Positions 4,691-64,000 of a DNA stretch of 64,000 nucleotides are shown piece after piece. This DNA is from an uncultured Mucilaginibacter sp. (GTDB taxonomy: Bacteria; Bacteroidota; Bacteroidia; Sphingobacteriales; Sphingobacteriaceae), in the NCBI GenBank assembly GCA_966212355.1, contig CBIHRB010000008.1, positions 95,084-159,083 on the forward strand. The letters are read 5' to 3'. Under the pieces are notes generated by a model. That model had not been told where the DNA came from. It worked only from the letters and a program-made list of their open reading frames with translations, and did no database searches. How positions within the stretch are numbered: the stretch's first letter is position 1; every line of letters starts with the position of its first letter. The position numbers and the translations under genes are program-made.

Positions 4691-4801
4691 TGATTTGAAG
4701 ATACCTGTAGCTTCTTTAATTTGAAAATAAGACAATTTGAAGATTTGAAAATTGCCCGATGGTTACATTTTCAAATCCTCAAATCAATAAATTTTCAAAT
4801 T
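4691..4801. repeat. TTTGAAGA/TTTGAAAA short-tandem inverted repeat (family C), empty doublet
   Basis: ATTTGAAGATTTGAAAAT (4735-4752) vs ATTTTCAAATCCTCAAAT (4767-4784), 17/18; outer arms 4718-4728 and 4791-4801. Same family at 58711 and 59774. Confidence 0.8.
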
Positions 4802-6824
4802 AAAACTTCTCCTCCATCATTTTTTCCAAAGCAAACATTTCGTCGCGCAGTTTGGCGGCCAGCAGGAAATCCATGTTTTTGGCGGCGGCGAGCATATCTT
4901 TTTTGGTGTTGTCGATTGATTTTTTCAGGTCGGCTTTGGTCATATACTGAACTATCGGATCGGCGGCAAGTGTCAGGGTATCGGTTTCTACATAAGCCTG
5001 CTGTACACCGCCCTTAAAGTCAACTACCGATGTTTGTTCCATAATTTCCTCGCGCGATTTGCCAACAGTTAATGGCGTGATGCCATGTTGTGTGTTGTAT
5101 GCAATCTGAATTTCACGGCGGCGATTGGTTTCATCTATCGTGATCTGCATCGAATCGGTTATTTTATCGGCATACATGATCACCCGGCCCCTATCATTAC
5201 GGGCAGCGCGGCCTATGGTTTGGATCAATGAGCGTTCTGATCGCAGGAACCCTTCTTTATCCGCATCTAAAATGGCAACTAACGATACTTCGGGCAGATC
5301 CAGGCCCTCGCGCAATAAGTTGATACCTATTAATACGTCAAATTCACCAAGTCGCAGGCCACGTAAAATTTCCACGCGCTGCAGTGTTTTTACTTCTGAG
5401 TGAATATAACGGCATTTAATACCCAGCCTGTCCATGTATTTGGCCAATTCTTCGGCCATGCGTTTGGTGAGGGTGGTCACCAGTACGCGGTCGCCCTTTT
5501 TAATGGTTTTATCTACTTCATCCAGCAGGTCATCTACCTGGTTTATCACCGGGCGAACGTCAATCACCGGATCAAGCAGACCTGTCGGACGGATCACCTG
5601 CTCAACCACCACGCCACCCGATTTTTCCAGTTCAAAATCGCCTGGGGTGGCGCTTACATAAACGGTTTGCGGAGCAAGGTTTTCAAACTCCTGGAAATTA
5701 AGCGGACGATTGTCTAACGCAGCCGGCAGGCGGAAGCCATAATCAACCAGCGAGATCTTGCGCGAACGGTCACCTCCATACATCGCCCTGATCTGCGGAA
5801 CGGTTACGTGACTTTCGTCAATCACCATCAGGTAATCTTCCGGGAAATAATCAAGCAAACAGAACGGCCTTGCACCGGGCTTGCGCCCGTCAAAAAAGCG
5901 GGAGTAGTTCTCGATGCCCGAACAGTAACCCAACTCGCGGATCATTTCCAGGTCGTAATTAACCCTTTCTTCCAAACGTTTGGCTTCCAGGAAACGGCCG
6001 TCATCAATAAACTGTTTTTTGCGGGTTTCCAACTCTTCCTGTATCGCCCAGATGGATTGCAGGAAACGCTCTCGGGGGGCAACATACAGGTTGGCGGGAT
6101 AAACCACCATGTGTGTCATTTTTTCGATGGTTTTACCGGTGCCGATATCAAAGGCGCTTAACTCTTCAATATCATCACCAAAAAAGGAGATGCGGTAGGC
6201 ATAATCCAGGTAAGCCGGGAAAATATCCACAGTATCACCCTTCACCCTGAATGTCCCTCGTTTAAAATCGGCAGTGGTGCGGGCGTATAAAATTTCAACC
6301 AAACGATGTAAAAAAGCATTCCTGCTGATGCGCGTACCTACGGCAAATTTGAAAACCGAATCGGCGAAGTCATCAGGGTTCCCCATACCGTAAATGCAGG
6401 ATATAGATGATACCACGATCACATCGCGCCTGCCCGACATTAAAGCCGAAGTAGTGCGTAAACGAAGTTTTTCTATCTCTTCGTTTATCTGCAGGTCTTT
6501 TTCGATGTATGTATTTGTAGTAGGAATGAAAGCCTCCGGCTGATAATAGTCATAGTAAGACACAAAGTAATTCACCGCGTTTTCGGGAAAGAACTGCTTA
6601 AACTCGCCATAAAGCTGTGCCGCTAATGTTTTGTTGTGGCTCAGGATCAGCGTAGGTTTTTGTGTTTGTGCTATAATATTGGCAACCGTAAAGGTTTTGC
6701 CCGATCCGGTAACCCCTAAAAGGGTTTGGTAGGGGTCGCCGTTGTTGATACCTTCAACCAGCTGCCGTATAGCTTCAGGCTGATCGCCGGTTGGTTTATA
6801 TTGAGATGTTAATTGAAAATCCAT
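4800..6824 (-). CDS. uvrB: Excinuclease ABC subunit B
   Basis: Walker A GVTGSGKT, YYDYYQPEAF beta-hairpin, DESH motif, C-terminal UVR domain. Confidence 0.98.
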   Translation of the reverse strand: MDFQLTSQYKPTGDQPEAIRQLVEGINNGDPYQTLLGVTGSGKTFTVANIIAQTQKPTLILSHNKTLAAQLYGEFKQFFPENAVNYFVSYYDYYQPEAFIPTTNTYIEKDLQINEEIEKLRLRTTSALMSGRRDVIVVSSISCIYGMGNPDDFADSVFKFAVGTRISRNAFLHRLVEILYARTTADFKRGTFRVKGDTVDIFPAYLDYAYRISFFGDDIEELSAFDIGTGKTIEKMTHMVVYPANLYVAPRERFLQSIWAIQEELETRKKQFIDDGRFLEAKRLEERVNYDLEMIRELGYCSGIENYSRFFDGRKPGARPFCLLDYFPEDYLMVIDESHVTVPQIRAMYGGDRSRKISLVDYGFRLPAALDNRPLNFQEFENLAPQTVYVSATPGDFELEKSGGVVVEQVIRPTGLLDPVIDVRPVINQVDDLLDEVDKTIKKGDRVLVTTLTKRMAEELAKYMDRLGIKCRYIHSEVKTLQRVEILRGLRLGEFDVLIGINLLREGLDLPEVSLVAILDADKEGFLRSERSLIQTIGRAARNDRGRVIMYADKITDSMQITIDETNRRREIQIAYNTQHGITPLTVGKSREEIMEQTSVVDFKGGVQQAYVETDTLTLAADPIVQYMTKADLKKSIDNTKKDMLAAAKNMDFLLAAKLRDEMFALEKMMEEKF

Positions 6825-8698: not shown

Positions 8699-8897
8699 GA
8701 TTTCGGATGTCGAATGTTCGATTTGGGATTTGTTTTGATTTCGAATTTCGGAAGTTCGATTTCGGATTTAGTAATTAAGATTTTCTAATTTTGAGTTTTC
8801 GATTTTTGAATCAAGGAATAAAACAATTTCGAAATCGAAAATCCGAAATCCGACATGAAATGATTAATTCCGAAATCGAACATCCGAAATCCGACAT
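8699..8897. repeat. Heptamer (GATTTCG / CGAAATC) tandem arrays in inverted arrangement (family D)
   Basis: Left arrays 8699-8731 and 8737-8769; right inverted arrays 8826-8856 and 8867-8897. Confidence 0.85.
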
Positions 8898-9588
8898 AAA
8901 GTATAAACACATCTTCTTTGATCTCGATCATACTATCTGGGATTTCGATAAAAATGCAGAGGAGGCCCTGCATGAGCTGTATGTTATTCACCAGCTTGGT
9001 GAAATAGGGCTGCAATCGGCCGAGCTGTTCATCGAAACGTATACCCGCAACAATCACCGCCTCTGGGCGCAGTATCATATCGGCGAGATCTCCAAAGATG
9101 AATTACGCGAGGCCCGTTTCAAATCAACCTTTACTGATCTTGGCCTTCACCCCGATCTGATGCCCGTTGATTTTGAGGATGCTTACGTAAAACTTTGCCC
9201 CACCAAAACCAACTTGTTTCCGCATGCGCACGAAACATTGCAATACCTGCAATCAAAATATACCCTGCACCTCATCTCGAACGGGTTTAAAGATTCAACG
9301 CGGATAAAAATAGCAGGAACCGATCTTGCCAAATATTTTCAGAACATTATTATCTCCGAAGATGTGGGTGTTAACAAGCCGGACAAAGCCATATTTCAAC
9401 ATGCACTTGACCTGGCCGGGGCATCAAAAGCCGAAAGCGTAATGATAGGAGACAGTATTGAAGCTGATATCCGCGGGGCGCTTAATTTTGGAATGGATGC
9501 GATTTATTTTAATCCTTTTAATGCGGAAAAACCTCAGGATGTAACAGTGCAGGTTGCTCATTTAAAAGAGTTAACTTTAATTTTATGA
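8860..9588 (+). CDS. yjjG: YjjG family noncanonical pyrimidine nucleotidase (HAD superfamily)
   Basis: DLDHT motif I, GVNKPD and MIGDSIEADI. ATG 8860 chosen; the TTG at 8791 reads through repeat sequence. Confidence 0.9.
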   Translation: MINSEIEHPKSDIKYKHIFFDLDHTIWDFDKNAEEALHELYVIHQLGEIGLQSAELFIETYTRNNHRLWAQYHIGEISKDELREARFKSTFTDLGLHPDLMPVDFEDAYVKLCPTKTNLFPHAHETLQYLQSKYTLHLISNGFKDSTRIKIAGTDLAKYFQNIIISEDVGVNKPDKAIFQHALDLAGASKAESVMIGDSIEADIRGALNFGMDAIYFNPFNAEKPQDVTVQVAHLKELTLIL

Positions 9589-33400: not shown

Positions 33401-33551
33401 TTTCCAGCAGTTGCCGATCATTGCCCTTACAGCCTCTATGCTCAGCAACCAAATGGGCGAGATTAATGATGCCGGAATGAATGACTACATTCTTAAACCC
33501 TTTGACCCGAGGGTGCTTTATGATAAACTAAGCAGGTATCAGCAGCAGTAG
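30423..33551 (+). CDS. Cytoplasmic hybrid histidine kinase (GAF-PAS x4-HisKA-HATPase-REC)
   Basis: GAF (FYAGAPL), repeated PAS/PAC, SHEIRTPLN, NAIKFT, GGTGLGL and receiver VLMDIHMP. Confidence 0.92.
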   Translation: MTPRQEDPSNVENKRLAALKSYNVLDTMPEKEYDAITRLASYICQVPAALISLLDAERQWFKSTYGVDVGETPRADAFCNRTIQSDALLEIADSKEDEEFKDNPIANEMGVRFYAGAPLIDPDGHRLGSLCVIDTKPRKLTAEQRDALRTLADEVMSHLLLRKQKLELEQNLKSHQEFHDLFDSSPDIHCIMDRDFNIEQINRSAKPVLGYLAAEVKGKPIWSFFPEEEQATLLSVLRKGLSRQQRHFEIEANIITPSGDVKCISWSVTFKSDKWFASGRDISYQKKVADEVALLSLVASKVTSGVVISNAADEVIWTNEAFEQITGYSQADVENRRLRDVLKGVPLDAEAVKRLDEAIRNQVSYEVDLLIDKKDGEPVWISVFNSVIRDSAGQTDKSIRVIIDITQRKKIEQELEILSFAARKSPSGILIRSNTGEVIWMNEALENIIGYTLDEMRGKMFGTMLLGEDTDISVFKAAVKAVEEKRGYEVEIKIYKKDKTPIWVFLSNTPLFNETGSVERQIAVMVDITERKKTEEQVTMLSLVASSTASGVVINNSDGKVEWVNKAFEQITGYTLLDVKDNHLGDVLKGELTDVSIIQKARELSRNKQSFEVDLLVYRKDRQPLWISVINSVIINSKGEVDKYIEVIIDITAKKKAEIELINAREEAVQLSRAKDMFISVMSHEIRTPLNAVIGMSHLLLEDDPLDGQKENLNILKFSAENLMTLINDVLDFAKIETGNVELEREGVDLTELVQSITSSMQYKAAEKNIYISKSIDEAIPKVILGDRTRLIQILLNLVGNAIKFTEKGGVTIDLRVIQQSEQDVRIRFAVIDTGIGIAANKLGTIFEQFKQAELDTTRKFGGTGLGLAISKRLIELHDSRINVDSVPGQGSTFWFTIGFKKGDYQLNRNSNNVEEGLKINVLVVDDNQINRLLINKILKKWGASADFAENGIEAIEKVETNRNYNVVLMDIHMPEMGGLEATGIIRAKTETYFQQLPIIALTASMLSNQMGEINDAGMNDYILKPFDPRVLYDKLSRYQQQ

Positions 33552-33644
33552 CCCCACCCAACCCTCCCCGGAAGGGAGGGCTTTGAAAAGAAAGATTCAG
33601 GTCAAAAAGAAAGTCTCCCCTTCCGGGGGAGATTTAGAGGGGGC
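33551..33644. repeat. GC-rich palindromic repeat (family A), intergenic copy
   Basis: CCCCACCCAACCCTCCCCGGAAGGGAGGGCT...AAGTCTCCCCTTCCGGGGGAGATTTAGAGGGGGC; near-identical at 50829-50911 and 63601-63671. Confidence 0.9.
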
Positions 33645-33647
33645 CTC

Positions 33648-47430: not shown

Positions 47431-47993
47431 GTCGGGAAGTCCGCAGTCCGCAAGTCCGAAAGTTGAGATCCAGCTTTCGGACTTGTCTTTTATAATATTG
47501 TAAATTCTTCAATCGCCGCCCGGTTAATGGCTACAGTGGTACAGCGACCGCAAATAAAGTACTTTTAGCGGATTGTTAGTGTAATCCCTGTTTTTATTAT
47601 ATGTCTTATTGTCAAGGCTTTATATTGACAAATTGCGAAAAGTGTTAACCCTGTTAACCCCCATCGCCGCCGCTCGCATCATGGCGAGTGGCAACTATCA
47701 AGCGGCCTCTGGCCGCCGGGGCAAAAGCAGCTTAGCCGTTTTAACTTGCGCTCGTTTTTAACTTGCGCTCGTTTGCAACGAGTGCTTAACTTGGGTTAGC
47801 GTTTATAACGCGACTGGCGATGCAATCGCCAAACCATATTAAGCACTCGTTGCAAACGAGCGCAAGAGATGATAGTATAAGAATCTTTCGGACTTCCGGA
47901 CTTTCCGACATAAAAAAACATTTGTATTTTTATAGATATAAAGTCTTTCCGTGAAAATCTTTCGGACTTATGCGGACTTTCCGACTTCCGGAC
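47431..47993. repeat. Nested cluster of at least three REP-like families
   Basis: AAGTCCGAAAG-type arms at 47431-47484, 47885-47909 and 47959-47993; hairpins at 47669-47716; perfect 28-bp inverted repeat 47762-47789 / 47839-47866. Confidence 0.85.
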
Positions 47994-50801: not shown

Positions 50802-50912
50802 AGCCCCCTCTAAATCTCCCCCGGTAAGCCCCACCCAAACCCTCCCCGGAAGGGAGGGCTTTTAAGAAATCTCCATAAAGTCTCCCCTACCGGGGGAGAT
50901 TTAGAGGGGGCT
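50802..50912. repeat. GC-rich palindromic repeat (family A) with an extra inverted half
   Basis: Perfect 23-bp inverted repeat 50802-50824 / 50890-50912; full element starts at 50829 after TAAG. Confidence 0.9.
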
Positions 50913-50953
50913 AAAGACGCTGGTATTTAAATGCTTAGCGTCTTTATTTTTTT
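50912..50953 (+). terminator. Rho-independent terminator after maeB
   Basis: TAAAGACGCT...AGCGTCTTTA followed by a T tract. Confidence 0.75.
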
Positions 50954-51087
50954 TGGGTGAGTATCTTGCGGCTTTTTATTTGTCATTATATAACATAATG
51001 ACGCCGGAATTTTATCTTTGGATAATCACTGTAAAGGCTGTTTGCCATTAACATCATTGTTTAATAAACTTAATAAAGTAATAATAT

Positions 51088-58707: not shown

Positions 58708-59134
58708 GGCTGATTTGAAGATGGGTTAATTTGAAGATTTAAAAATGAAATAATAATCTGAATTTCGGGTGGGTAACGTTCTATCAGGGTCTGTAGCAAA
58801 TTCAAATTAACCTGCAAAATTGTTTGTTGGTTAATCAGCAAGGCGTTGTTTTACCCCTCTGGGGCAAGGGACATATCTATTATTTCGAGGGCTACAAACC
58901 TTTTGCACCTCTGGTGCATCATTTTCAAATCCTCCTTCCCCTCAGGGGCTCTCGGGAGAGGACCCTGAGGGTGATAATTATCTTACGGTTAGCCTTAGTC
59001 GAATACTATATGAACGAAGCTTTACTCTATTCAGGAAAAATTTGAGGATAATTCATGATCCTCAAAAAGAGCTGAAGGGACGCGAACGGCGCCCGGGATT
59101 TTAAATAGCTTCAAGGAATTAGTATATTTGTTAT

Positions 59135-59341
59135 ATGGATGCATTAATTGTTTACCCTGAGAATAAGGAGCAGATGGCAGCTTTAAAAGCAGTGATGAAA
59201 GCCATGAAAATATCTTTTGAACAAAAAAGCGAAGTTTACCCGGATTACGTGGTTAAGGGAGTTAAAGAATCACTAAAACAAGCTGATGAGGGAAAATTAA
59301 CTCCATACACCGGATTTAAGAATGTTCTAAACAGAAGATGA
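59135..59341 (+). CDS. DUF2683-like putative antitoxin
   Basis: ALIVYPENKEQ.AALKAVMKAMKISFE; ATGA overlap with the toxin; TATATTTG -7 box at 59123-59130. Confidence 0.75.
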   Translation: MDALIVYPENKEQMAALKAVMKAMKISFEQKSEVYPDYVVKGVKESLKQADEGKLTPYTGFKNVLNRR

Positions 59342-59628
59342 GTTTAGAAATCCTATCTACGCAAAATGCGGACGAAACATTTATAGCAGTTTACGACTTT
59401 ATTGAAATCCGTTTCGGAAAAAAAGTTGCTGATAAATTTTTAGAAAAGACTGAAAACATCGTAGCTCTAATAGCAGAGTATCCACTTATGTATAAAGCTA
59501 CATCTATAGATGTCAATGTAAGAATTGCAATTATCAGTAAACACACTTCTCTATTTTACCGGGTTACAGAAACATCTGTTCATCTCTTATACTTTTGGGA
59601 CAATCGTCGGGATCAGTTGTTTTTATAA
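59338..59628 (+). CDS. RelE/ParE family toxin
   Basis: A.ETF..VYDFI..RFG.KVADKF, LIAEYPLMY and SLFYRV....HLLYFWDNRR pattern. Confidence 0.85.
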   Translation: MSLEILSTQNADETFIAVYDFIEIRFGKKVADKFLEKTENIVALIAEYPLMYKATSIDVNVRIAIISKHTSLFYRVTETSVHLLYFWDNRRDQLFL

Positions 59629-59807
59629 CAAGTTCCCCAATCAATACCCCGCCGTTGTGGGTGTTCTCATCATAGGTGTTCGAAGATAAAGTTATCTCTT
59701 TTTTAAATGAACATTTTCGCCCAAATTTTATCTTCCGAACACCAACAGCGGCGGAAGAAAACTCGAGGAGCTCCATTTTCAAATCTTCAAATTAAACAAT
59801 CTTCAAA

Positions 59808-61610
59808 TCAAAACTTCCCCTGGTCCATCAACTTTTTCCGCTCCGCTTTTCTTTTCTGGCGCTCTGCTTTATTCTTTAAACGTTCTTCTTTGTTTTTGAG
59901 ATGCTCGTCAATGCGGTCTTTAGTGGCTTTTTGGCTTTCTTCATCAAGGCCGACACATGGTTTTATACCGGTAAGCAGGGTTTTCCAGATAGTTTTAAAA
60001 AATGGCGAATCTTTAGGCCGTTTATAGATCACTAATGATGAAGTGAGCTTCCCCTTATCATCAGGATTACTACGCCTGATCACGAAGAGATTGGCATATA
60101 TCGACATGATTGATTTCCTTTTGAAACGATCATTAACCGTATCGGCTTTTAGTAGCACCACCTTTAAATCGTTATATAAAAAATCAACCTTACCTTTAAA
60201 TACCTTGCTGTTGGCCTGGATATCAAAGCTGAATTTTTTTACGCTGCCCGATGTCATTTTTACCATGGCTAAAGGCATGGTAGCCGGATTTAGCCTTCCA
60301 AATTCCATTGGTCCTAATGTGCCCTTATAACTGAAGGCGGCATCTGCATCGCTTAAATTAAATTTCAATTGCACATCGAGCCGGCCGCGGTTCATAAAAT
60401 ACGTTGTCAGATCAACAAGGGTAATGTTGTTTTTGGCTATGGCCGATGGATTGTTGGTAATGTTATAAATATACCCGCTGGTATTGTTAAATGTAACGGT
60501 GCCTGTTTTTTGAGATTTTTTATTGAACTCGTTATAGATCACATCAACGTGCCGGATTTTCATGGTGTCGATCCTTAAATCAAGGTTTAATTTCCTGATC
60601 ATCATATTGGGGAACGTTTTAACCTTATCTGTTACAGGATCTGGTTTCTTACCCGGGTTGGTGAAAGCTGTTATCTTGCCGTTTGCCATGGTTAGGCTTG
60701 AAGCAGAAACTGTGCGGTATTTGTGATAATTTAAATAGTCAAAATTGTTTAGCTGAACAGAATCGGCCAGTAAGCCCAGCCGGTCCTTCTTGCTTTTATC
60801 AAAAAAAACATCCGATTTAGTTGGCTGCATAACAAGCCCTTCGATATTTAGCCGTGATGTAAGGGTTGAGAGTTTAAGATGCCTGATCTTATAAGTATGC
60901 AAACCGCTCGGTGTTTCTCCGGTGTAATTGTTCAACTCGGTGATAATATCTTTGCAATAAAGCAGGCGCGATTTATCATATTGTGTAGCCGAATCAATGA
61001 GCAGGTCGTTTGCACTTAAGTTTAGCTCTTTAAGTTTGGAAATGGCCACCTTATTTCCCGAGTAATCTTCATAGTTCAGGTTAACGTCATTAAGCAGGAT
61101 GCTGCCGATATGGATCGATTTCAGGCTTTTGGAGATCCGCTGCCAGGCGGTACGGCGATCTTTAACAACAGTATCTTTGGTATGGTTTAACTGGTAGCTT
61201 ACATTCAGGCGCGGCTCATTCAGGATGATTTGGCCAATGTTCAACTTTTTTTGAAAATAGAGGCTAAATGGATGCACGTGGTTAAGCACCAGCCGTTTTA
61301 CCTTAAGCTCAACCAGGGTATTGGGGGCCAGGCGTAAACGCTTTTTTTGATTGTAAACTGTTGTGTCGGGCTTAAGGGTTATATTGTAAATAATAATTTT
61401 GCCCTGCAGGATATGCAGCTCGGCGTCCGAAAAATCGGCTTTGTAAAGGCTGTCGCTGCTGCTTAATACCACATCCTTTACTTTGGCGGCCAAAATGGGC
61501 GACCAATACCTGTTTACTACTACAGCCAGCAGCAATATCACTATAACCGGTATCAGCACAAATTTAAAAGTTTTTTTTTGCCACTGGTGCTTTAAAAAAT
61601 TGAGTGCCAT
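59808..61610 (-). CDS. AsmA/DUF748-like membrane-anchored beta-rich protein
   Basis: N-terminal TM anchor, beta-rich repeats, charged C-terminal tail; family is inference. Confidence 0.5.
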   Translation of the reverse strand: MALNFLKHQWQKKTFKFVLIPVIVILLLAVVVNRYWSPILAAKVKDVVLSSSDSLYKADFSDAELHILQGKIIIYNITLKPDTTVYNQKKRLRLAPNTLVELKVKRLVLNHVHPFSLYFQKKLNIGQIILNEPRLNVSYQLNHTKDTVVKDRRTAWQRISKSLKSIHIGSILLNDVNLNYEDYSGNKVAISKLKELNLSANDLLIDSATQYDKSRLLYCKDIITELNNYTGETPSGLHTYKIRHLKLSTLTSRLNIEGLVMQPTKSDVFFDKSKKDRLGLLADSVQLNNFDYLNYHKYRTVSASSLTMANGKITAFTNPGKKPDPVTDKVKTFPNMMIRKLNLDLRIDTMKIRHVDVIYNEFNKKSQKTGTVTFNNTSGYIYNITNNPSAIAKNNITLVDLTTYFMNRGRLDVQLKFNLSDADAAFSYKGTLGPMEFGRLNPATMPLAMVKMTSGSVKKFSFDIQANSKVFKGKVDFLYNDLKVVLLKADTVNDRFKRKSIMSIYANLFVIRRSNPDDKGKLTSSLVIYKRPKDSPFFKTIWKTLLTGIKPCVGLDEESQKATKDRIDEHLKNKEERLKNKAERQKRKAERKKLMDQGKF

Positions 61611-62768: not shown

Positions 62769-62856
62769 GAAATGAATGAGATTTTATTTAATACTGACAA
62801 TATGTCATTTAGGTATTTAAATTTTGTTTATTTTTGCAAACTAATTTTTTATATAA

Positions 62857-64000
62857 ATGATGGATTTGCTTATTCCGGATAAAACACATGATGAGAGCAG
62901 GCAGGGTGAGGCGTTAATGTTAAAAGCCGAAACAGCTAAAAATAATGGCCGCAAGCTTTATATTGAAAGCTACGGCTGTGCCATGAATTTTTCTGACAGT
63001 GAGATAGTTGCATCGATATTGGCCGAAAGTGGTTTTGAAACTACTGCCGACTATAGCGTAGCCGATGTTATTTTCATCAATACCTGTTCTATCCGCGAAA
63101 ATGCCGAACAGCGCGTACGCAACCGTTTAAAAGAGTTTACCGTTGCCAAGGTAAAAAATCCAGGCCTGGTAGTAGGCGTATTGGGCTGTATGGCCGAACG
63201 CCTCAAATCAAAATTCCTGGAAGAAGAAAAATTAGTTGACGTTGTGGTTGGCCCGGACGCGTACCGCGATTTGCCGAACCTCATTAACCAGGTAGATGAT
63301 GGTCAAAAGGCAGTTAACGTGCTGCTCTCCCGTGAGGAAACTTATGCCGATATCAGCCCGGTGCGTTTAAACAGCAATGGTATCAATGCATTTGTATCCA
63401 TTATGCGCGGGTGCGACAACATGTGCTCGTTTTGCGTGGTACCCTTTACCCGTGGCCGCGAACGCAGCCGCGATCCTTTATCGATAGTTGCCGAATGCCG
63501 CGACCTGTTTGACAAAGGTTATCGTGAGGTTACTTTGTTAGGGCAGAATGTAGATTCATATAAGTGGCGTCCCACCCAAACTCTCCCCGGAAGGGATAAG
63601 CCCCACCCAAACCCTCCCCAGGAGGGAGGGCTTTTAGAAGTCTCCCCTGCCGGGGGAGATTTAGAGGGGGCTGGTGAGGCTGTTAACTTCGCTAACCTGT
63701 TAGAAATGGTTGCACTGATCGATCCTGATCTGCGGGTTAGGTTTTCAACCTCACATCCAAAGGATATCACCGATGAGGTGCTGCATGCCATCAATAAATA
63801 CGATAACATCTGTAATTATATCCACCTGCCGGTACAATCGGGCAACAGCCGTATTCTTGACCTGATGAACCGCACTTATGACCGTGAATGGTATATCAAC
63901 AGGATCGACGCTATCCGTCGTATCATTCCGGATTGTGCAATTTCAACCGATGTGATCACCGGTTTTTGCAGCGAAACAGATGAGGAGCACAAGGATACTG
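62857..64000 (+). CDS. miaB: tRNA-2-methylthio-N6-dimethylallyladenosine synthase MiaB, 3' end outside window (absent from ORF track)
   Basis: Hand translation: [63 protein letters not shown]; no stop codon seen. Confidence 0.96.
63571..63672 (+). repeat. Family A repeat inserted in frame within miaB
   Basis: 102 bp; encodes [34 protein letters not shown]. Confidence 0.9.

Follow-up and report, generated by a model that had tools for sequence, protein, structure and literature searches.

The miaB insert and its intergenic copies

We analysed a 64,000-nucleotide (nt) stretch of DNA from an uncultured Mucilaginibacter species of the Bacteroidota (contig CBIHRB010000008.1 of assembly GCA_966212355.1, positions 95,084 to 159,083), hereafter the window, which ends within a miaB gene that carries a palindromic repeat in frame. 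The first-pass annotation of this DNA had described the repeat as a 102-bp stop-free insert in the radical-SAM (S-adenosylmethionine) domain of MiaB, with two further copies between genes, and had read it as an analogue of the Rickettsia palindromic elements (RPEs) that lands in tolerant surface loops and adds a Pro/Gly-rich peptide. The repeat is built from two kinds of hairpin unit, A and B, arranged in the window as follows.

62857-64000, forward strand: miaB, tRNA (i6A37-C2) methylthiotransferase, its 3' end beyond the window end (translation, domains, equivalog score)
63571-63672, forward strand: in-frame insert of 102 bp, 34 codons, stop-free (translation of 62800-64000; repeat analysis)
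63571-63596, forward strand: truncated older unit A (CCCACCCAAACTCTCCCCGGAAGGGA), cut within its 3' hairpin arm (88% identity to 63602-63627)
63600-63633, forward strand: complete unit A (GCCCCACCCAAACCCTCCCCAGGAGGGAGGGCTT), hairpin arms 63609-63618 and 63624-63633, translated as 12 residues (1 mismatch to consensus)
63638-63672, forward strand: unit B (AAGTCTCCCCTGCCGGGGGAGATTTAGAGGGGGCT), arms 63638-63647 and 63653-63662, G.T wobble, purine tail, translated as 11 residues (repeat analysis)
33551-33644, forward strand: intergenic copy 1, with unit A at 33551-33583, a 27-nt spacer and unit B at 33611-33644 (repeat analysis)
50802-50912, forward strand: intergenic copy 2, with a partial inverted unit B at 50802-50826, unit A at 50828-50861, a spacer and unit B at 50878-50912 (repeat analysis)

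The full miaB product (P0001, 503 amino acids (aa), a 100% match to the window translation) contains the Pfam domains UPF0004, Radical_SAM and TRAM, scores 434 bits against the NCBIfam TIGR01574 MiaB equivalog (cut-off 355.3) and has an intact open reading frame (ORF) in which the radical-SAM CxxxCxxC motif reads CDNMCSFC. The insert enters the protein after KW, beginning RPTQ, and leaves it at EGA, before GEAVN. Its encoded peptide is Pro/Gly-rich as annotated, its GC content is 0.63 against 0.46 in the rest of miaB, and it is open in three of six frames. Within it a truncated unit A is followed by a full unit A, a 4-nt spacer and unit B, and the duplicated partial left arm that the first-pass annotation had noticed is the truncated unit, 88% identical over 26 nt to 63602-63627 in the complete one. 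Unit A approximates the reverse complement of unit B, the pair forming an imperfect inverted repeat (71% complementary), and each unit holds a hairpin of 7-10 bp. Unit B also occurs as a separate multicopy module: in contigs of related genomes the flanks diverge at 63638 and at 63671-63675, borders that we set by the loose contig ends of other genomic copies.

The three A...B copies in the window measure 94-111 bp each. The 22-mer CCGGGGGAGATTTAGAGGGGGC occurs four times (at 33623, 50890 and 63650, and at 50803 on the minus strand), whereas 100 shuffles contained none, and a left-arm 22-mer occurs three times at no more than three mismatches against 0 expected. As had been noted for the 34-nt right arm, unit B is identical in the three copies apart from one base (T, A or G), which lies in the hairpin loop. 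Copy 2 has outer arms that form a perfect 25-nt inverted repeat. The spacers, first given as 28, 17 and 5 nt, are about 27, 17 and 4-5 nt by our unit borders, and the miaB copy does have the shortest; it is not, however, the only stop-free copy, as all three, the intergenic ones included, are open in the VSPxGGDLEGA frame. Copy 1 begins on the final base of an upstream TAG stop codon (33549-33551), and copy 2 starts a few bases past a TAA, with a terminator-like hairpin and T run downstream (~50913-50955). Between the same borders as copy 1 (33551-33646) isolates X7 and X10 hold a different 200-nt stretch, so intergenic sites turn over too.

Position and translation of the insert

The solved structure nearest to P0001 is 7mjv, the MiaB of B. 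uniformis, and an AlphaFold model of P0001 matches the MiaB structures 7mjv-7mjz outside the insert. At the insert site 7mjv lacks about 34 residues (query 238 to 273 aligned to chain 223 to 227). From the sequence alignment and the model, which is of moderate quality (mean predicted local distance difference test score, pLDDT, 64), the insert is placed in the beta2-alpha2 loop of the radical-SAM barrel, between strand 224-229 and helix 278-286. Residues 240-274 are modelled as coil with no secondary structure and pLDDT below 50, that is, as a disordered loop. The idea that the element lands in tolerant surface loops would mean random insertion followed by filtering, which is not established, since, as described below, the same sites are re-occupied.

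A multicopy repeat can mislead assemblers, and the insert could in principle be an artefact, a mark of a miaB pseudogene, or a segment removed from the RNA or the protein. We regard all of these as very improbable. An independent metagenome assembly (L128) has the same junctions, TGGCGY followed by CCCACCC and GGGGGC followed by GRGTGAGGCTGTTAAC, its product (P0002) is carried by 8 contigs, and there are dozens of other in-frame variants. The intact ORF, the cysteine motif and the equivalog score argue against a pseudogene. As to removal, all 120 of the closest MiaB homologues keep the loop in frame and stop-free at lengths of 13-190 aa, which is expected only if the loop is translated. Metatranscriptome contigs run continuously from miaB into the insert of a sister allele, a result to be read with the caveat that such libraries may contain DNA. 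Pfam found no Hint or intein domain in P0001 or in 40 host proteins scanned, which contained only host domains and DUF559/MTES_1575, and Rfam, introns included, gave no match in the window. We rejected an intein or intron reading on the absence of a Hint domain and of an Rfam match, and on the frame and openness kept across loops of 13-190 aa.

Turnover at the MiaB site

Genes very close to the window miaB carry other loops at this site. P0004 (L126) has another unit pair (SPQPSPKERAL...KSLPLGEVGG) in a protein that is 99.5% identical to P0001 outside the loop, with DNA flanks 96-98% identical; P0029 (L124) has a Bacteroides-like loop of 13 aa, KYSTTGEDVITTN, with 99.2% protein and 96-97% flank identity; and P0002 (L128) shares the junctions of the window copy at 97.4% protein and 86-89% flank identity. 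By DNA alignment the L126 and L124 loops are non-homologous to that of the window. Contigs of isolate X7 have a different 102-nt insert at the exact miaB borders. Among the 120 closest homologues the loop is 13-14 aa long in 6, 16-23 aa in 17 and 32-190 aa in 97, with several unit families represented. MiaB alleles that are empty, mini (units only, of at least three families) or full (with a nuclease module, described below) thus occur in genes 96-99% identical, a presence/absence polymorphism. The first-pass annotation had reasoned that orthologues without the repeat should lack a loop of equal length; 7mjv and the 6 homologues with 13-14 aa agree.

In the window unit B is a perfect consensus, whereas that of L128 is decayed, and at the same junction L128 has a complete unit A where the window has a truncated one. 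The window copy looks like a partial replacement, in which an old, truncated unit A held in common with L128 stands beside a fresh A and B.

These comparisons bear on a reading in which the loop is an old, vertically inherited feature of Mucilaginibacter MiaB: one ancient insertion, decaying and occasionally converted, with nothing mobile now. The predominance of long loops (97 of 120) would fit such a history, as would a right-hand unit that is always in the same frame and the junctions that the window and L128 share though their flanks differ by 11-14%. We nevertheless consider it improbable. Genes that are 99.2-99.5% identical elsewhere have non-homologous loops or loops of ancestral, Bacteroides-like length; the window unit B is pristine beside the decayed one of L128; an isolate has a different insert between the same borders; and two unrelated lineages of the nuclease module, 51% identical, sit at the one MiaB site in different taxa. 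The data already point towards many independent gains, losses and replacements at this site.

Two side observations concern the same neighbourhood. The miaB loop of L127 (P0031 and 16 similar proteins) is 23 aa long (KWKSKVEGSEPEV...SEAETN), starts with AAGTC and ends in CAGAGGCAG; it faintly resembles a decayed unit B and may be an old remnant or a chance likeness. Between miaB and a sigma-54 activator gene, L126 (4549-4920) and L127 (4518-4886) have a gene for a PF05635 23S rRNA intervening-sequence protein that is absent from L124 and L128, a second presence/absence polymorphism adjoining miaB; the window ends before this point.

A DUF559 nuclease module between the same ends

In two Mucilaginibacter MiaB clusters, P0081 (L001-L003, 16 contigs) and P0111, the same loop holds a full form of the element, reading AGCCCCCTCTAAATCTCCCCCGGTAGGGGAGACTT, then a DUF559 ORF, then AAGTCTCCCCTACCGGGGGAGATTTAGAGGGGGCT, all in frame. 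The full MiaB cassette consists of a perfect 35-nt inverted unit B (translated APSKSPPVGET), about 430 bp of DUF559 and a unit B (VSPTGGDLEGA), in one open frame. The module, of about 115 aa, is a Vsr-like nuclease domain (DUF559/PF04480, with PF18741) and is the only ORF between the ends. A leucyl-tRNA synthetase (LeuRS) gene in L085 has KPHPNPPREGGL (unit A), DUF559 and KVSPTGGDLEGA (unit B), which are the two ends of the window copy around a nuclease. In L121 and L122, DUF559 genes that stand alone have inverted units from other sub-families on either side.

The ends of the short element are thus those of a protein-coding form (A and B in the L085 LeuRS, inverted B and B in the L001 MiaB), as would be expected of a miniature inverted-repeat transposable element (MITE) and its parent. 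A recognised transposase of the kind that a terminal-inverted-repeat parent would encode is not present, DUF559 not being known as a transposase. On this comparison the window insert is best read as an endonuclease-less 'mini' element that consists of ends only. It is at most a derivative of a homing endonuclease element, as it has no endonuclease ORF itself, unlike related copies at this site.

In the model of P0081 (mean pLDDT 68) the module is predicted as a folded domain between disordered linkers: over residues ~290-400 ten-residue blocks have pLDDT 63-97, with 9 of 11 at 79 or more, and the unit-encoded stretches 261-286 and 409-429 fall below 50. The modelled module superposes on the DUF559 structure 3hrl with a template modelling (TM) score of 0.89 and a root-mean-square deviation of 1.6 Å, and on the catalytic domain of I-Bth0305I (3r3p) with a TM score of 0.76. 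DUF559, Vsr and I-Bth0305I belong to one PD-(D/E)XK clade (Steczkiewicz et al., PMC3424549). The nuclease motif xDF...ExDG..H is intact and the module stop-free in 80 of 80 metagenomic modules, and motif and model alike suggest a functional module.

The MiaB module of L001 is 79% identical to the modules at LeuRS site 1 and 51% identical to the MiaB module of L177. Its being nearer to LeuRS than to the other MiaB module makes the shared units a likelier landing site than host-gene sequence.

Distribution across Bacteroidota

We surveyed unit B by an exact 20-mer scan of genome contigs; the counts below describe a sample of 128 copies among the matches listed, not a census. Among these matches the 20-mer was found in Mucilaginibacter, Pedobacter, Chitinophagaceae, Hanamia, Cytophagales, Chryseotalea, Flavobacteriaceae and other Bacteroidota. 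The first-pass annotation had called for a count of in-frame coding copies, and 24 of the 128 lie at least 40 aa inside ORFs of at least 230 aa. Of these internal copies, 22 are read in the GGDLEG frame (VSPxGGDLEGA), though the GRFRGG, APSKSP and PPLNLP frames are also open. Their hosts fall into at least 16 different Pfam-confirmed families, among them a glycosyltransferase, SMC, a class Ic aminoacyl-tRNA synthetase, an aminotransferase, a SAM methyltransferase, MetH, anthranilate synthase, an amino-acid kinase, methionyl-tRNA synthetase (MetRS), DnaG, IspG, FtsK, an Lhr helicase and methylmalonyl-CoA mutase (two copies); DegT and acetyl-CoA synthetase hosts carry DUF559 too.

Scanning metagenomes with a DUF559 alignment, we obtained 557 relatives, of which the best 80 were used for counts. 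In 62 of these 80 the DUF559 frame runs stop-free for at least 60 aa past the module on at least one side, a proportion that is biased for DUF559 as a whole, the query being an in-frame copy. Scanning one representative per host group with Pfam identified 18 host groups with a Pfam domain, which cover 58 of the 62 in-frame loci and are all enzymes, the module usually lying between inverted hairpin units: LeuRS (14 loci), MetH (10), methylmalonyl-CoA mutase/MeaB (5), RecG (5), the guanylate kinase Gmk (4), RNase H (4), a type ISP restriction enzyme (3), MetRS (2) and TsaD (2), with MiaB, IspG, DegT, HsdR, a glycoside hydrolase of family 31 (GH31), UDP-GlcNAc 2-epimerase, a superfamily 1 (SF1) helicase and an IleRS-like enzyme as further hosts. 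Inverted repeats flank DUF559 at 35 of 79 loci; the control gave 4 of 79. In 29 of these 35 segments, which were selected without a hairpin criterion, there is a perfect stem of at least 6 bp (shuffles: mean 0.9, maximum 3), and the hairpins comprise 15 different stem sequences, that is, family-level covariation. The pattern of in-frame units and DUF559 modules is, by these counts of contigs, widespread in Bacteroidota and phylum-wide.

Full and mini forms occur at the same sites in LeuRS site 2 (L114 versus L089 and L116), in IspG (L083 versus P0129) and in the inter-domain linker of MetH (L030 versus L158), and LeuRS has two occupied sites, at which DUF559 may be present or absent. The MiaB, LeuRS, MetH and IspG sites have been repeatedly re-occupied (empty, mini or full, by different unit families), and this recurrence points to a hot spot or to homing-like turnover. 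Two genes stand out for double occupancy: a single LeuRS with two DUF559 modules at two sites (L116:3135-5654) and a single methylmalonyl-CoA mutase with two mini elements (L028:2-2536).

Architecture of the hairpin unit

The general unit is 34-35 nt long and runs from a C/T-rich arm through a short loop to a purine arm, which a purine tail follows. Unit B has the ends AAGTCTCCCC...GAGGGGGCT and unit A the ends GCCCCACCC...GGGCTT. The purine tail mirrors the 3' arm, both in the window (63653-63672) and in copies from L004-L208, as in GGGGAGA-TTT-AGAGGGG and GGGAGGG-TTT-GGGTGGGG. Across families the mirror tail co-varies with the stem (mirror score 0.656 versus 0.593 +/- 0.0095 in permutations). 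This pyrimidine-purine-purine layout is what an intramolecular purine-motif triplex requires, and several arm-plus-tail strings, with four G runs, are G-quadruplex-like; both structures are putative, being read from base composition and symmetry.

Just beyond the perfect stem, both in the window (63638-63662) and at other loci, 212 of 376 units (from 16 of 51 stem families) have a pair that is G.T when read on the purine-tail strand and A.C when read on its complement, so that one strand only is able to extend the hairpin. A T:G mismatch is the substrate of Vsr-type nucleases, and Vsr is a relative of DUF559.

Comparison with known systems

RPEs (Ogata et al. 2000, 2002) are summarised as translated palindromes in a 2024 review of MITEs (PMC10969869), which treats in-frame repeats at such frequency as a peculiarity of Rickettsia and does not mention Bacteroidota. 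The resemblance that the first-pass annotation drew is real in several respects: a multicopy palindromic repeat of about 100-150 bp lies between genes and in frame in many unrelated housekeeping genes, and the peptide is thought to sit where the fold tolerates insertion. The window element, a palindrome of about 100 bp with in-frame copies in unrelated genes, shares these features. However, it comes from another phylum and is an analogue only, no sequence kinship being expected. RPEs have no protein-coding parent, whereas the Bacteroidota ends flank a DUF559 module, which makes the analogy incomplete. The Bacteroidota unit also differs in being a 35-nt hairpin with a mirror tail, in its near-single frame and in sites that are re-occupied by different families; the RPE picture does not explain the bias of 22 in 24 copies towards one frame.

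Inteins, with their homing cycle and mini-inteins (PMC1654191, PMC3943268), resemble the element in lying in frame in conserved housekeeping proteins (aminoacyl-tRNA synthetases, RecG and other helicases, MetH), in expressing the nuclease within the host polypeptide, in having empty, full and nuclease-less alleles at one site, and in their sporadic occurrence among close relatives. In contrast, the Bacteroidota cassette has no Hint domain and no conserved Cys/Ser/Thr...His-Asn junctions, and the insert is accordingly expected to remain in the mature protein; its nuclease is of the DUF559/Vsr clade, and it is bounded by hairpin units that also occur free as intergenic repeats.

In concept, the nearest precedent for a homing insert that does not splice and keeps the host frame free of stops is the ShiLan insertion in a phage DNA methylase (Arsenault, Gosselin and Gogarten 2025, PMC11855218). 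That insertion is homing-like and stop-free in the host frame, has no detectable intein or intron features and is predicted to loop out of the host protein. It differs in having an out-of-frame HNH nuclease and in occurring in actinophages, and the abstract reports neither terminal hairpin repeats nor mini derivatives; the Bacteroidota element has DUF559 in frame, cellular enzymes as hosts and multicopy repeat ends. The EDxHD/Vsr-like homing endonucleases such as I-Bth0305I (PMC3239194, PMC2677866) belong to the same PD-(D/E)XK clade and have a superposable predicted fold. Those enzymes are found in group I introns, between split-intein halves or free-standing, with NUMOD or helix-turn-helix (HTH) DNA-binding regions, whereas in Bacteroidota a bare domain of some 115 aa is tethered within the host protein. 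In the literature that we covered, which excludes subscription journals, we found no description of the units, their peptides or in-frame DUF559 cassettes.

Repetitive extragenic palindromes (REPs) and their doublets (REPINs), as portrayed in PMC3733652, are likewise imperfect palindromes of 20-40 nt that form inverted doublets, reach high copy number and make strand-asymmetric hairpins. This likeness underlies the main rival to a homing-type origin, namely that the units are REP-, REPIN- or MITE-like sequences moved in trans by an unlinked transposase, for instance a REP-associated tyrosine transposase (RAYT) or one of IS200/IS605 type that uses single-stranded hairpins as substrate, that genic copies are what was tolerated after near-random insertion, the view proposed for RPEs, and that DUF559 is a separate selfish gene homing into the spacers between units already paired, with no role in spreading the minis. 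The units are indeed imperfect palindromes of 34-35 nt, often in inverted pairs but also single, and mostly intergenic in the window; the G.T wobble extends the stem on one strand only, as for a single-stranded substrate; the spacers between units vary greatly, from 4 to ~430 nt; and the 79% identity of the L001 MiaB module to those at LeuRS site 1, against 51% to L177 MiaB, suggests that modules move between unit-sharing sites. Several features are harder to reconcile with it. REP superfamilies are defined, in the same source, by a GTAG or CGTC tag, which is absent from units A and B. No RAYT or other transposase was seen linked to units in the loci examined, which did not amount to a systematic search, and the nuclease that does accompany them is a PD-(D/E)XK enzyme rather than a Y1 transposase. 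About one fifth of the sampled copies lie in long ORFs, nearly all in one frame, unlike REPs; the same sites recur in several host genes; and no target-site duplication was seen. We hold the unlinked-transposase explanation to be unlikely, if the most serious of the alternatives.

A probable homing-type origin

We think it probable that the miaB insert is a copy of a hairpin-ended mobile element of Bacteroidota, the nuclease-less mini form of a homing-type cassette, and that it is translated with MiaB. The full cassette is read in the host frame, with neither a stop codon nor a splicing domain, and the nuclease is therefore predicted to form an extra folded domain between two disordered Pro/Gly-rich linkers that are encoded by the units. 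In the mechanism that we propose, this nuclease would cut or nick at or near the units or where a site is empty, and the site would be converted when recombinational repair uses an occupied copy as template. The nuclease gene would then decay or be deleted, with the ends persisting harmlessly in a surface loop; alternatively, minis may have come first and been invaded later. A site would in this way cycle from empty to full to mini as in a homing cycle, and the mini form would resemble a mini-intein, or stand to the full form as a MITE does to its parent.

A more specific proposal, which we advance only tentatively, is that these elements form a non-splicing, intein-like selfish class, in which 35-nt mirror-tailed hairpins capable of triplex or G-quadruplex formation surround an in-frame DUF559 whose nuclease would recognise the unit, possibly as a G.T hairpin, and drive gene conversion between copies and genomes. 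The short repeats would then be remnants, and readability in one frame would have been selected. Related to two known kinds, the translated palindromic repeat and the homing element, it has a substantial chance of forming a distinct class.

A number of observations weigh against a homing-type origin. Solo units are common, and of the four unit-B copies in the window only the one in miaB lies within a gene, so units may spread without DUF559; 16 of the 80 DUF559 loci have no recognisable unit nearby. No DUF559 gene lies within the 64-kb window, and a nuclease acting in trans in this genome is an assumption. The nearest relative of an embedded module is in the same host gene in 52 of 66 cases, which fits vertical descent of old insertions. 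No direct repeat flanks the three window copies or the L001 cassette as a target-site duplication would, and we saw no conserved target motif. The predicted RNA fold of the insert (minimum free energy -57.3 kcal/mol, z = -1.62) is not significantly more stable than those of shuffles. Both structure models are of moderate quality (mean pLDDT 64 for P0001 and 68 for P0081), and for all members nuclease activity, its target and conversion are putative. The in-frame query of the DUF559 scan and the possible DNA in the RNA libraries count on the same side.

Other repeats in the window

The window has further repeats. At 47745-47866 lies a palindrome unrelated to the element, with 50-nt arms that are 84% complementary and 5 nt apart, CTTGCGCTCGTTTGCAACGAGTGC... 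AT-rich repeats (ATTTGAAGATTTGAAAAT...) occur in inverted orientation at 4715-4813, 58711-58747 and 59774-59821, and one pair brackets about 1 kb (58747-59774). A TTCGGATTTCGAATTTCG-like motif is present as inverted and direct repeats at 8735-8900.

Implications

Palindromes in coding frame, treated until now as a Rickettsia curiosity, are found here in a phylum that is large and free-living, and here, for the first time, they come with a candidate engine. Annotation is affected as well: at present neither such inserts nor the spurious small ORFs that overlie intergenic copies are labelled. The units would serve as natural 'permissive-site' markers, showing where domains can be inserted in enzymes, and the DUF559 nuclease could be a new sequence- or structure-specific tool. 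If the link to DUF559 is true, a homing-type nuclease would persist in essential genes without splicing, by means of its own flexible linkers, and surface loops would be either chosen or the survivors of filtering. The link would then also bear on the origin of inteins and mini-inteins, on the function, so far unexplained, of the very large DUF559 family and on the odd Pro/Gly-rich inserts in many Bacteroidota orthologues.

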